NCBI GenBank assembly: GCA_019338205.1 | Contig: GCA_019338205.1_4761.1 | DNA length: 64,000 bases | Reading direction: 5' to 3' (one strand) | Origin: a phage | In this document: positions 15,450 to 17,952 of the stretch, piece after piece | Position numbering within the stretch: the first letter of the stretch is position 1 | Layout: each line of letters opens with the position of its first letter | Notes under the pieces: generated by a model | What the model was told of the DNA's origin: nothing | What the model saw: only the letters and a program-made list of their open reading frames with translations | Database searches by the model: none | Program-made: the position numbers and the translations under genes

Positions 15450-15914
15450 ATGACCCCGTTTAGAGAATCCGTTAAAGGTACATATGCGGCGGTTAAATTC
15501 ACTGAGGATACACTAGACCGCATTGAAAAATTGCAGGAGTTCTACGATCTGCCTAATGCCGTTCCTCGTGATAAACTGCATAGCACTATCTTATATTCTC
15601 GTGTCTATGTTCCGTTTATCCCAGAAGAAGGGGAGAAGTTCTTAGGCTCTCTATGCCATCTGAAAGTGTTTGAAACTCAATCCGGTACTAATGCGCTTGT
15701 GCTGGCATTTGAAAGCGACTACATGCAATTCAGACACGATATCGGCACTGCTTTAGGTGCGACGTGGGATTATCCTGAATATGTACCGCATATCACGCTT
15801 TCTTATGATGTTGGTGCGCGTAAATTTGGCACTGACCTAGAGTTCGATTTAGAGATTGTCCGATCTCATGAGTATGTCGAAGATCTGGATCTGGAGTGGA
15901 CGACCAAACTGTAA
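15450..15914 (+). CDS. 57B: gp57B-like 2H phosphoesterase (Acb1-like anti-CBASS cyclic-oligonucleotide phosphodiesterase)
   Basis: two H-x-T/S-x motifs (HSTI, HITL) ~75 aa apart; 154 aa; syntenic with T4 57B next to 57A. Confidence 0.7.
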   Translation: MTPFRESVKGTYAAVKFTEDTLDRIEKLQEFYDLPNAVPRDKLHSTILYSRVYVPFIPEEGEKFLGSLCHLKVFETQSGTNALVLAFESDYMQFRHDIGTALGATWDYPEYVPHITLSYDVGARKFGTDLEFDLEIVRSHEYVEDLDLEWTTKL

Positions 15915-15957: not shown

Positions 15958-15986
15958 TTGACAACCATAAACGACTATAGCATAAT
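15958..15986 (+). promoter_or_regulatory. early promoter cassette (PeSL-type) TTGACA-N17-CATAAT
   Basis: TTGACA 15958-15963, CATAAT 15981-15986, conserved leader catcgaaacgaaacacac and ggagaatcaaaATG. Confidence 0.6.
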
Positions 15987-16023: not shown

Positions 16024-16404
16024 ATGATGATGATGATGTTTAAAGATAAATTCGAATGTCACTACACCCGTAACTTTGACTTAGTATCCCGCTACTACAT
16101 TCATAAAGAAACTGGCACGCAAGTAGTTCTTGAATCTCACAGCGAAGTAGGATTCGATTCAACAAAAGTAGCAATTAGTGCTCGCTTCTGGGATAACGGC
16201 AAATTTGCTTATATCGCTTGGAACGACGACGAAAATATAATTACAGTAGCTTTCGGTGATGACTACTACACTAAAAAGACTTTCGATAGTAAGCCATCAA
16301 ATGAATACCTGAAAGCGTATGTGCAGCACATGTTCCAACGTGTTCTGACCGGAATGGAAATCAATGTCATGAAAGACATTGTAGACGAAGTAAAATATTC
16401 TTAA
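16024..16404 (+). CDS. hypothetical early protein (starts MMMMMFKD)
   Basis: ATG after conserved cassette leader; ORF track frame. Confidence 0.5.
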   Translation: MMMMMFKDKFECHYTRNFDLVSRYYIHKETGTQVVLESHSEVGFDSTKVAISARFWDNGKFAYIAWNDDENIITVAFGDDYYTKKTFDSKPSNEYLKAYVQHMFQRVLTGMEINVMKDIVDEVKYS

Positions 16405-16410
16405 AAATAG

Positions 16411-16445
16411 TTGACAACATGAAACGGGGGTAGTAAGATACCCCC
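16411..16445 (+). promoter_or_regulatory. early promoter cassette with hairpin enclosing -10 (TTGACA-N17-TAAGAT)
   Basis: TTGACA 16411-16416; stem gggggta/taccccc 16426-16432 with 16439-16445 around TAAGAT. Confidence 0.5.
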
Positions 16446-16470
16446 ACAAACAAACGAAAGGAGAATCAAA

Positions 16471-16629
16471 ATGAAATTCATCGGTAAAACTTTTATGTTC
16501 GTAGCTGGTACTCTGTTTACTGCAACTCTGTTAGCTGGTGGCTTAGATATCTTTACTGCCTTTGAAACTTTCGGGTATACTGTAGCATCGGGTGCTCTCT
16601 TCGGATTGGGTTTAGCGATTAGCAAATAA
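16471..16629 (+). CDS. small hydrophobic membrane protein (52 aa)
   Basis: ATG after ggagaatcaaa leader; below ORF-track size cut-off; G/A-rich TM-like sequence. Confidence 0.45.
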   Translation: MKFIGKTFMFVAGTLFTATLLAGGLDIFTAFETFGYTVASGALFGLGLAISK

Positions 16630-16638
16630 GGTGATAAT

Positions 16639-16842
16639 ATGGAATTGGATATGGTTAAAGCAAAATTTATGGGTAAGGATAAGAGCGGTAAAACATTTGT
16701 TATTAATAGAACATTGTTTAGCTCTGACCTTAAGTGGGTAACACAACAATTTGCGGAAGTCAACGAGGCAGTTGTGACATGCTTCGTTGATGGTAAAAAA
16801 GTTTTTGAAATTGATCGTCGTGGGGTGTCTAATGATCGCTAA
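16639..16842 (+). CDS. hypothetical small protein (67 aa)
   Basis: ORF track. Confidence 0.4.
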   Translation: MELDMVKAKFMGKDKSGKTFVINRTLFSSDLKWVTQQFAEVNEAVVTCFVDGKKVFEIDRRGVSNDR

Positions 16843-17029
16843 ACTGTTTAGCAATACTTTGTTTCTGATTGCATTTGTTTTCTTTCTGTGTCTGATCATC
16901 GGTGTGATTGCAGTCGGTAGTTATTCCGGTATTACAATAGATGATTTTTGTATGTTGGTTTTCTTTTCAAGTGTTCCTACACTCCTGATCGCTGTATGTG
17001 GTGCTTTTAGATGGATCTGTGATCTATGA
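16832..17029 (+). CDS. small two-helix membrane protein
   Basis: hydrophobic ORF; start taken at ATG 16832 overlapping previous stop. Confidence 0.4.
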   Translation: MIAKLFSNTLFLIAFVFFLCLIIGVIAVGSYSGITIDDFCMLVFFSSVPTLLIAVCGAFRWICDL

Positions 17030-17136
17030 CTGAACAGGAACGAATGATGTTGATAGGTGGACCTGAGTTCACTAAATTTGATGCAATTCTTATTGCGTTT
17101 GGTTTTCTTATGATCTGTTGTATGGTGGCGCTATGA
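17026..17136 (+). CDS. small membrane protein (36 aa)
   Basis: ATGA start/stop overlaps on both sides; hydrophobic C-terminus. Confidence 0.3.
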   Translation: MTEQERMMLIGGPEFTKFDAILIAFGFLMICCMVAL

Positions 17137-17357
17137 GTAGTATAAAATATTTCGCTTTCTTGTGCTTTATGATGTTCTTTACATTCTTTGCATGTGTTTT
17201 CTTTACCTGGCTTGCTCATGTTGATAATGCAACCGGACCGTTTTACTTCTTCTGTGTATTGTCTGTGTTGACTGGTGCTCTTGTTACGTGGATGATTCGA
17301 GATTGTTACGGAATGTATAAGTTTGAAAAGACTCGACCGAAATGGGGCAAACGATGA
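17133..17357 (+). CDS. small two-helix membrane protein
   Basis: ATGA overlap with upstream ORF; two hydrophobic segments. Confidence 0.4.
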   Translation: MSSIKYFAFLCFMMFFTFFACVFFTWLAHVDNATGPFYFFCVLSVLTGALVTWMIRDCYGMYKFEKTRPKWGKR

Positions 17358-17536
17358 AATTATTTGCGTGGCTAATTATTTTAAATGTAATTGTTAAGAC
17401 CTTTCTCGCTGGTCTGATGATGGCGCATAGCACGAAACCAGAAGAAGCATTAACGTATTTTGTTGCTTATGTGCTGGGATTCTTGCTTACTGCGTGGATG
17501 TGTGATGAATATCGAAGAATTGAGGTAAAACCATGA
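17354..17536 (+). CDS. small two-helix membrane protein
   Basis: ATGA overlap; two hydrophobic segments. Confidence 0.4.
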   Translation: MKLFAWLIILNVIVKTFLAGLMMAHSTKPEEALTYFVAYVLGFLLTAWMCDEYRRIEVKP

Positions 17537-17751
17537 AAATGACTTTTTATATCTTAGCAAGTATCATGCTTGTGATCTCTTCTGCATTATTTGCATTTCT
17601 TACCGTTTGGGGGATCTGTACTGATGCGAAGCCGTGGGATATCGTAGAAAATACGGTTATGTTTATTATTAGTGTCATGTGTCTTTTTGATGCATTTAAC
17701 TCTATCAAGGAAGAAGACCAAAAACGTCGCGATAGAAAGCGATATAAATAA
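17533..17751 (+). CDS. small membrane protein with basic C-terminus
   Basis: ATGA overlap; hydrophobic N-terminal two thirds, KRRDRKRYK tail. Confidence 0.4.
   Translation: MKMTFYILASIMLVISSALFAFLTVWGICTDAKPWDIVENTVMFIISVMCLFDAFNSIKEEDQKRRDRKRYK
17743..17750 (+). promoter_or_regulatory. T4-type late promoter TATAAATA
   Basis: exact TATAAATA overlapping the stop of ORF 17533-17751, facing a 150-nt ORF-free structured segment. Confidence 0.4.
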
Positions 17752-17756
17752 TAGTG

Positions 17757-17927
17757 AACTAAAGACAGCGCGGTTAGAATGATTTGGACGTCACCTAGCC
17801 GCATTTATTGCAGCGTATGGGCGATCCGGTACGCTAAAGCATTCACTTGCTAGGCCGCTAGCAGGTTGGAGACAAGGAAGATTCGCTACCTTCCCTATAA
17901 GCCACTCTTCGGAGTGGCTTTTTTATT
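17757..17927 (+). ncRNA. candidate small structured RNA (late-promoter to terminator unit)
   Basis: no ORF above 25 codons; hairpins agcgta/tacgct, gctag/ctagc, ggaag/cttcc; ends at strong terminator. Confidence 0.25.
17901..17927 (+). terminator. intrinsic terminator
   Basis: gccactc-ttcg-gagtggc hairpin followed by TTTTTTATT. Confidence 0.75.
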
Positions 17928-17952
17928 GCCTAAAATTTTTTTAAAAAAGTTG

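Follow-up and report, generated by a model that had tools for sequence, protein, structure and literature searches.

The question raised by positions 16,471 to 17,751 of a 64,000-nucleotide stretch of phage DNA (GenBank assembly GCA_019338205.1, contig GCA_019338205.1_4761.1; hereafter 'the window') is what six very small hydrophobic proteins, encoded one behind the other, contribute to infection by a T4-like phage. An initial annotation, prepared from the sequence and a list of its open reading frames (ORFs), described the locus as a chain of six translationally coupled genes behind a single cassette promoter and named superinfection exclusion, lysis timing and the countering of membrane-associated abortive infection systems as candidate roles. 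We consider it very probable that the six ORFs, termed p1 to p6 here, are real, early, co-expressed genes for small membrane proteins; that these may serve as early inner-membrane accessory proteins for exclusion or counter-defence is a reading drawn from association and architecture, to which we assign a probability of roughly 0.4. The interval also holds two features that the initial annotation had missed, namely the antitoxin gene dmd, which is its single most informative gene, and a conserved structured RNA at its 3′ end, which is the most unexpected feature of the locus.

The transcription unit and its dmd gene

The window derives from a Krischvirus (RB49-like, T4-type) coliphage. Matches to the segment 16400-17950 were found in 59 phage records, with nucleotide identities of 94.6-97.5%; all are Krischvirus (RB49, phi1, JSE, GEC-3S and relatives, with E. 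coli and Shigella as hosts), and the locus, which is present in every one of these 59, is absent elsewhere among 50,697 phage records. RB49 is collinear with the window over its positions 12321-74350 and names the seven genes of the unit, in order, ORF124, dmd (123) and ORFs 122, 121, 120, 119 and 118. Since p1 to p6 are carried in essentially every record, as hypothetical proteins or, in phage W115, as putative membrane proteins, they are not new as ORFs. The transcription unit, predicted to be early and about 1.5 kb in length, runs from a PeSL-type promoter through p1, dmd, p2, p3, p4, p5 and p6 to a structured RNA and a terminator.

All six ORFs begin where they had been placed, on the plus strand, at 16471, 16832, 17026, 17133, 17354 and 17533, and the description of them as genuine genes for small, predicted membrane proteins in one tightly packed unit, predicted to be early, is upheld. 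With regard to the length range initially given, 36-72 amino acids, the minimum is correct and the maximum is not, the actual lengths being 52, 65, 36, 74, 60 and 72 amino acids. The p1 protein (RB49 ORF124; 16471-16629) has a clear hydrophobic segment at residues 7-24 and a second, glycine-rich one at residues 37-51, with basic termini and an acidic loop. Hairpins of two transmembrane (TM) helices are predicted for p2 (ORF122; 16832-17029), which is the most variable of the set and starts inside or beside the dmd stop codon, for p4 (ORF120; 17133-17357), the most conserved, with a basic C-terminal tail (+7/-2), for p5 (ORF119; 17354-17536) and for p6 (ORF118; 17533-17751), which carries a strongly charged C-terminal tail (+8/-4) and is preceded by a GAGGT Shine-Dalgarno sequence. 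The p3 protein (ORF121; 17026-17136) combines a polar N-terminal half with a single predicted C-terminal TM helix of the tail-anchored type; its start is annotated variously among genomes, giving products of 29, 36 or 41 amino acids.

The uninterrupted chain of six envisaged initially is in fact a series of seven genes, as a non-hydrophobic gene (plus strand, 16639-16842; 67 amino acids, grand average of hydropathy (GRAVY) -0.32) had been overlooked between p1 and p2. By its sequence this ORF is Dmd, the antitoxin against host RnlA/LsoA: it matches Pfam PF17587 with 54.2 bits against a cut-off of 27 (E = 1.9e-14), with residues 4-62 aligned to positions 2-60 of the 60-position profile, matches PHROG 2102 with an E-value of 3.8e-30 and is 45% identical to T4 Dmd over 60 amino acids. 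Dmd, which T4 makes early in infection, neutralizes the host toxin RnlA (RNase LS; PMC3014915). The C-terminus of Dmd is polymorphic among the relatives, with lengths of 64, 67 or 69 amino acids and a truncated form of 56 amino acids in MIZ5, which are caused by single-base slippage either in a G run (16818-16821) or in an A run that immediately precedes the start of p2. Some relatives have an additional G in the G run, by which Dmd is shortened to 64 amino acids, and the dmd/p2 junction becomes a 1-nt TAATG overlap.

As dmd stands between them, p1 is not joined to p2: a gap of 9 nt containing GGTGA separates p1 from dmd, which in turn overlaps p2 by 11 nt. The ATGA and TGATG links that had been proposed throughout the chain are confined to ATGA overlaps at four junctions (p2/p3, p3/p4, p4/p5 and p5/p6, at 17026, 17133, 17354 and 17533, respectively), and TGATG links are found nowhere in the window. 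The four ATGA overlaps are kept in 22 aligned relatives, with the sole exception of Phi1, which has ATA at 17026, and the dmd/p2 overlap (11 nt, or 1 nt with the 64-residue Dmd) is likewise conserved across relatives. A single overlap of this type is ordinary for this genome, where it occurs at 13 of 112 same-strand junctions in the window; the unusual part is the occurrence of four in a row. Shine-Dalgarno-like motifs lie at a suitable distance before p1, dmd, p2, p4, p5 and p6. The p3 gene lacks such a motif, and its start probably depends on the ATGA overlap or on an internal ATGATG. From this arrangement we infer translational coupling of the cistrons; given the stop/start overlaps from dmd through p6, re-initiation by the same ribosomes is likely, and the products would appear together in the first minutes of infection.

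The promoter cassette (plus strand, 16411-16470) consists of a -35 element TTGACA (16411-16416), a 17-nt spacer and a -10 element TAAGAT (16434-16439), the latter overlapped by a G5/C5 stem-loop (16424-16447), followed by an AAGGAG Shine-Dalgarno sequence and the ATG. In a promoter scan the TTGACA-17-TAAGAT combination scores 10/12 and is the sole sigma70-type match between a PeSL promoter at 15958 and the operon, while inside the unit no match scores better than 9/12. A terminator scan of the plus strand from 16447 to 17899 detected none. The single cassette promoter proposed at the outset is therefore borne out as one sigma70-type match at 16411-16439, with the reservation that the promoter stem-loop is not a plus-strand terminator and that read-through from 15958 is consequently possible. 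The GEC-3S record annotates a promoter at the same site, the cassette is conserved in the relatives, and its 3′ part belongs to a repeat family, D2 (67% identity), that is common to other cassettes.

This make-up, a sigma70 consensus with an overlapping G/C stem-loop, Shine-Dalgarno sequence and ATG, repeated in hyperplastic regions, is that of the PeSL elements defined in RB49 and phi1, for which strong early promoter activity has been shown (Arbiol et al., 2010; PMC2839356). Early timing of the operon is accordingly a prediction from promoter type. The locus resembles the published cassettes in its promoter and in the orphan ORFs (ORFans) that follow it in a hyperplastic region, and differs from them in extent and constancy, since typical cassettes carry one or two ORFs and are variable in presence (PMC2839356), whereas this one carries seven genes and a conserved RNA and is fixed in all sequenced members of the genus.

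Predicted membrane character, selection and allele exchange

The claim that each of the six proteins has one or two predicted TM helices is borne out by hydropathy windows and charge pattern. GRAVY values of the six range from +0.32 to +1.75, and each protein has one or two hydrophobic windows, defined as 19 residues with a Kyte-Doolittle mean of at least 1.6. In p1, p2, p4, p5 and p6 the charges follow a positive-inside pattern, from which the termini are predicted to be cytoplasmic and to flank an acidic periplasmic loop of 8-12 residues. AlphaFold2 models of p4 (helices 3-31 and 35-67; predicted local distance difference test (pLDDT) score 75) and p6 (helices 2-29 and 34-71; pLDDT 80) are two-helix hairpins. 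Membrane insertion and topology are predictions, according to which the unit would encode six separate, very small inner-membrane proteins: five helical hairpins whose two termini face the cytoplasm and whose short acidic loop lies on the periplasmic side, and a single tail-anchored helix.

The reading frames are maintained in an alignment of 26 relatives that includes the divergent sequences L003 and L028 (about 86% identity), L030 (90%) and L027 (94%). Loss of these frames among related genomes, which the initial annotation had named as a refutation, is not observed: they are intact in 25 of the 26, and every ratio of nonsynonymous to synonymous substitution rates (dN/dS) is below 1. Genes p2 to p6 are free of indels in the same 25 relatives, while several indels fall in the promoter region and in a single hairpin of the 3′ non-coding part. 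The indels of p1 and dmd in divergent relatives stay in frame (12 nt and 6 nt), the former being a 12-nt insertion in L003. Pairwise Nei-Gojobori estimates, made for the annotated frame and for the two off-frames, give dN/dS values of 0.16 for p1, 0.30 for dmd, 0.54 for p2, 0.25 for p3, 0.08 for p4, 0.24 for p5 and 0.13 for p6, compared with mostly 1.1-2.8 off-frame. Codon-usage scoring, with long RB49 genes as the training set, gives a positive value for each of the six. Even p2, which has diverged by up to 22% at the nucleotide level, contains neither indels nor stop codons in any of the 26 relatives, and most of its substitutions exchange one hydrophobic residue conservatively for another. 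By these sequence measures, purifying selection acts on every ORF.

The only damaged copy is that of L026 (3139-4676; metagenome contig MAVA01000028.1), where a 1-nt deletion frameshifts p4 and a deletion of 11-14 nt removes the end of p6 together with the late promoter motif TATAAATA, discussed below; this could reflect an error in sequencing or assembly or, alternatively, a variant in decay. The damage is one of two points that would favor regarding the six ORFs as dispensable passengers of mobile PeSL cassettes, with little or no function, that persist by linkage to dmd, the other being their ORFan status within a hyperplastic region of the kind in which PeSL elements are documented to mediate shuffling (PMC2839356). 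Against such a role stand purifying selection and retention throughout the genus, as every ORF is constrained, p2 to p6 lack indels in the other 25 relatives despite synonymous divergence (dS) of up to about 1, and the genes are kept in every sequenced Krischvirus, and we give the passenger explanation only a very slim chance.

Superimposed on this constraint is a pattern of allelic variation. At a distance threshold of 6%, five allele classes are found for p2, five for p6, four for p5 and three for p3, in combinations that differ between phages, while p4 and the RNA each form a single class, one outlier apart. Residue 41 of p2 (codon 16952-16954, at the boundary between the loop and the second TM helix) is occupied by seven different amino acids in 26 sequences, possibly reflecting diversifying pressure on this protein. 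The sequence pattern fits a mosaic locus subject to gene-by-gene exchange in a hyperplastic region, and allele reassortment together with the variable p2 site fits genes exposed to varying partners.

The same pattern bears on whether p2 to p6, with or without p1, assemble into one hetero-oligomeric membrane complex whose proportions are fixed by translational coupling. Such an arrangement would account for four consecutive ATGA overlaps and the dmd/p2 overlap, for one promoter common to all members and for the same set of genes in the same order in all 59 records. It is disfavored as an obligate complex because the alleles of p2, p3, p5 and p6 reassort independently, which would repeatedly break co-adapted interfaces. 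Moreover, no paralogy was found among p1 to p6, and ATGA overlaps are common genome-wide; the complex is, in our judgment, distinctly unlikely.

By sequence, p1 to p6 are Krischvirus-restricted orphans and lineage-restricted accessory genes. Searches by tblastn with all six gave matches only in the 59 Krischvirus records. Exact look-ups located five of the six proteins in a collection of 5.8 billion proteins, in which p6 is represented by six clusters only, all at least 82% identical, and with p4 as the HMMER query, exhaustive scanning of 1.84 billion representatives recovered two true relatives and two spurious long repetitive proteins. Each of the six belongs to its own small PHROG without functional annotation (p1, 16462; p2, 17225; p3, 15282; p5, 15717). 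Comparison with Pfam, NCBIfam and PADLOC yielded nothing above threshold for the six proteins, and the sub-threshold NCBIfam and PADLOC matches are driven by composition. One of the sub-threshold similarities, of p2 to 4TM effectors of the cyclic oligonucleotide-based antiphage signaling system (CBASS; E = 0.12-0.86), is a lead and not evidence. Kinship of the six to the neighbors of dmd in T4 (61.4/TifA, Sp, 61.2/AdfA, 61.1 and gp40) was considered and none was found. A Foldseek comparison of the p4 and p6 AlphaFold2 hairpins with viral structures returned only generic uncharacterized viral hairpins (E at least 0.9), and a literature search found no functional study of RB49 ORF118-124.

Candidate roles at the inner membrane

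In the reading that we favor, p1 to p6 would act early at the host inner membrane and protect the infection, either by blocking DNA entry of superinfecting phages, as T4 Imm does, or by neutralizing membrane-acting host suicide effectors. Exclusion or counter-defence gains support because dmd lies within the operon, because Acb1 is encoded two genes upstream, because the dmd locus of T4 includes spackle and because RB49 is without Imm and Sp. The Acb1 gene (gp57B; 15450-15914) encodes an anti-CBASS phosphodiesterase (Pfam PF23474, E = 1.5e-51); older records label it gp57B or 'RNA ligase'. In RB49 neither dmd nor sp is present between genes 41 and 61, nor imm beside gene 43, and when the complete RB49 genome was searched by tblastn with Imm, Imm.1 and Sp of T4, no homologue was found.

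In T4, dmd is located between genes 41 and 61 with tifA (61.4, anti-ToxN), sp (61.3, spackle, superinfection exclusion) and adfA (61.2, anti-DarTG), three neighbors with proven counter-defence or exclusion roles, and Srikant et al. term this locus an anti-toxin-antitoxin (anti-TA) island, of which the remaining neighbors are named as candidates (PMC9391042). The Krischvirus locus shares with it an orthologous dmd gene, a promoter of early type and small accessory genes that would be co-transcribed. It differs in position, lying between 57B and the endolysin gene rather than between genes 41 and 61, and in the nature of the neighbors, which are unrelated to those of T4 and predicted to be membrane proteins, while TifA, AdfA and gp61.1 of T4 are soluble and Sp is periplasmic. 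The syntenic interval of T4, from 57B to e (trna.4, e.2, e.3 and e.4), is likewise hyperplastic and holds uncharacterized predicted membrane proteins as well as the small stable RNAs rnaC and rnaD; unlike p1 to p6, its proteins are longer (about 60-130 amino acids), and no sequence similarity was detected.

The closest functional parallel would be T4 Imm (83 amino acids), the very small product of an early gene, which resides in the inner membrane, has two hydrophobic helices and ends in a charged tail. The same outline is predicted for p2, p4, p5 and p6 from hydropathy, charge, AlphaFold2 hairpins and promoter sequence. The likeness does not extend to sequence, as Imm is unrelated to p1 to p6, occupies a different genomic position and gives best E-values of only 4.6-8.8 in tblastn against the RB49 genome and the window, so that the six are not assigned to the Imm family. 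Compared with T4 Sp, which has a cleavable signal peptide and a soluble periplasmic domain, the six ORFs are without a soluble domain and gave no blastp match, and the best tblastn match of Sp in RB49 (E = 0.049) lies inside gene 41.

Several considerations weigh against exclusion or counter-defence and against the case for six functional genes on which it is built. Pfam, NCBIfam, PADLOC, PHROG annotation and Foldseek give nothing significant on function; guilt by association is weak in the hyperplastic regions of T4-type phages, which mix unrelated ORFans; the abundance of ATGA overlaps in this genome means that coupling need not imply shared function; the in-frame dN/dS of p2 is barely better than that of one of its off-frames (0.59); and the near-invariant p4 looks more like a protein in a housekeeping interaction than one in an arms race.

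The last of these points is also among those that suggest remodeling of host physiology, in which each protein, in the manner of small membrane proteins of bacteria, would associate with one larger membrane protein of the host and alter its activity (a transporter, sensor kinase, protease or respiratory complex, for example), with no relation to defence or exclusion. The size and single-hairpin architecture of the proteins are typical of small membrane regulators, the dN/dS of 0.08 for p4 suggests a conserved host partner, and a takeover of the host would agree with the predicted early expression. No known regulator is homologous, though, the operon partners and neighbors are counter-defence genes, and accessory genes of the conflict type are a better fit to the restriction to one genus and to the shuffling of alleles. 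We hold host remodeling to be doubtful.

Lysis timing, the remaining role put forward in the initial annotation, would make the proteins holins, antiholins or pinholin-like proteins that set the time of lysis or lysis inhibition. In length (about 60-75 amino acids), in their two TM helices, in their predicted N-in/C-in topology and in their charged C-terminal tail, p2, p4, p5 and p6 have the outline of class II holins such as S21 of phage 21, p4 has a sub-threshold match to Phage_holin_3_6 (PF07332, E = 0.05), and the same region contains the endolysin gene, about 4 kb further downstream. That match, the best of the set to a holin family, is far under the Pfam cut-off, however (14.1 versus 28.4 bits), and Foldseek gives no significant match. 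Class II holins are expressed late and paired with an endolysin, whereas by sequence the promoter here is of the early sigma70-type PeSL kind, from which a holin would kill the host prematurely, and the endolysin gene stands behind other promoters. In addition, RB49 carries the t holin gene, rI, rIIA/B and both spanin genes elsewhere. The early promoter and the complete T-type lysis set disfavor lysis control, which we rate as very unlikely.

Returning to exclusion and counter-defence, the features of the locus might be combined in a more specific proposal, that of a Krischvirus-specific counter-defence/exclusion island in which the hairpins represent a new class of membrane-embedded inhibitors and which also specifies a new phage small RNA. 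The hairpins would act as decoys that poison the oligomerization of membrane-disrupting abortive-infection effectors of the host, or as Imm-like blockers of DNA entry, and the RNA, 170 nt in length and near-invariant, would be supplied by two routes, as the tail of the early operon transcript and by transcription from a T4-type late promoter of its own. In its entirety this joint proposal is speculative, and we think it improbable that all its parts hold.

T4-type phages carry hundreds of small orphan early genes, of which the few with an established function (Imm, Sp, Dmd, TifA, AdfA and Acb1) proved to be exclusion or counter-defence factors. Krischvirus phages are, moreover, used for phage therapy. 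The operon offers a compact, deletable target, comprising six conserved membrane ORFans tied to dmd, with Acb1 nearby, in every member of the genus. Because Krischvirus has no recognizable Imm or Sp, p1 to p6 are reasonable first candidates for exclusion or for surviving membrane-acting defences.

The conserved 3′ RNA and neighboring genes

While p1 to p6 are already annotated orphans of a familiar kind, the structured RNA that follows them is unannotated. The 174 nt that follow the p6 stop codon and include the terminator (17752-17925) lack any credible ORF and are far more conserved than the genes: 17836-17898 is 98-100% and 17836-17925 is 96-100% identical even where p6 is only 79-84% identical (dS about 1), and 17752-17805 is 94-100% identical, with variation confined to the tip of a single hairpin. 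In some records this region is overlaid with small ORFs that are spurious. The body of the RNA (plus strand, 17752-17898), which would serve as the operon's 3′ untranslated region and might, in addition, be transcribed separately late in infection, comprises four hairpins. It is followed by an intrinsic terminator (plus strand, 17899-17925; a 9-bp GC-rich hairpin and a T run) that would end both the operon and the RNA, doubles as the stem-loop of the next PeSL cassette, is annotated in GEC-3S, G2248 and Makalu and is 96-100% identical in the relatives compared.

The predicted fold of five hairpins, including the terminator, has a minimum free energy of -65.2 kcal/mol (z = -4.19 versus shuffles). 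In an alignment of 12 sequences (17752-17930), all varying base pairs but one keep pairing, with one compensatory change from GC to AU; support from covariation is thin because the sequences are so alike, and scans for divergent copies gave few new loci. The loops and linkers do not vary either, an observation that points to sequence-specific contacts and not simply to protection of the 3′ end. We judge the chances that the RNA is functional to be slightly better than even.

With regard to its relationships, no Rfam family reaches its gathering score (best 20-24 bits versus thresholds of 47-100), the matches being driven by the terminator hairpin, and there are no tRNA or tmRNA genes in the window. 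A covariance model finds a single copy in RB49 and in the window, and the RNA occurs only in Krischvirus. Descent in common with T4 rnaC or rnaD, which lie in the syntenic interval, was considered and set aside, as the covariance model finds no match in the T4 tRNA region. An origin from the host, or extensive complementarity to it, was likewise rejected, as only the terminator hairpin matches a few E. coli genomes.

Directly upstream of the RNA, and overlapping the last codons of p6 (Tyr-Lys-stop), is an exact T4-type late promoter motif, TATAAATA (plus strand, 17743-17750), so that the RNA has a late -10 element, as a sequence motif, shortly before it. The exact motif occurs three times in the 64-kb window and 14 times in RB49, and the operon copy is present in 26 of 27 sequences. 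For twelve of the 13 other RB49 copies a start codon follows at a distance of 28-45 nt; the genes concerned, for the most part virion genes, are 53, 9, 18, 22, 23, 24, uvsW, 51, 34, ORF250, rI and 31. We infer from this motif and from the early promoter that the RNA may have two origins, being the terminal portion of the early operon transcript and also a separate late-promoter transcript of about 170 nt. If transcribed as predicted, it would be a rare dedicated small RNA gene in a virulent T4-type phage. The thirteenth other copy, at RB49 94996-95003 (L033:44996-45003), lies after gene 23 and 372 nt before ORF162, where by its sequence it might mark another unannotated late transcript.

Among the neighboring genes, the one upstream of the operon (16024-16404; RB49 ORF125, 126 amino acids) begins with five methionines and shows a sub-threshold Pfam likeness to T4 Gp30.7 (E = 0.0095). 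Outside the window, between genes 41 and 61 (L032:11261-11404), where T4 has dmd-tifA-sp, RB49 carries dc1, dc2, a gp61.1 homologue and two small ORFs, one of which encodes 47 amino acids with two predicted TM segments.

The clustering of small membrane genes was assessed on the complete RB49 genome, for which a simple codon-usage caller yielded 276 genes, near the annotation count, 33 of them with at least one predicted TM segment. Of the 25 consecutive genes between the endolysin gene and 57B, 13 are TM-positive (permutation P = 3e-5), and the run of five consecutive TM-positive genes formed by p2 to p6 has a permutation P of 0.005. Seven further small predicted membrane ORFs of 38-71 amino acids are located at 19387-19899 (three), 20515-20673 (one) and 20920-21510 (three), just upstream of the M15-peptidase endolysin gene (21539-21928), and together with p1 to p6 they account for the 13. 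One of the seven, the 71-residue ORF at 21102-21317, has a holin-like outline and sub-threshold matches to holins.

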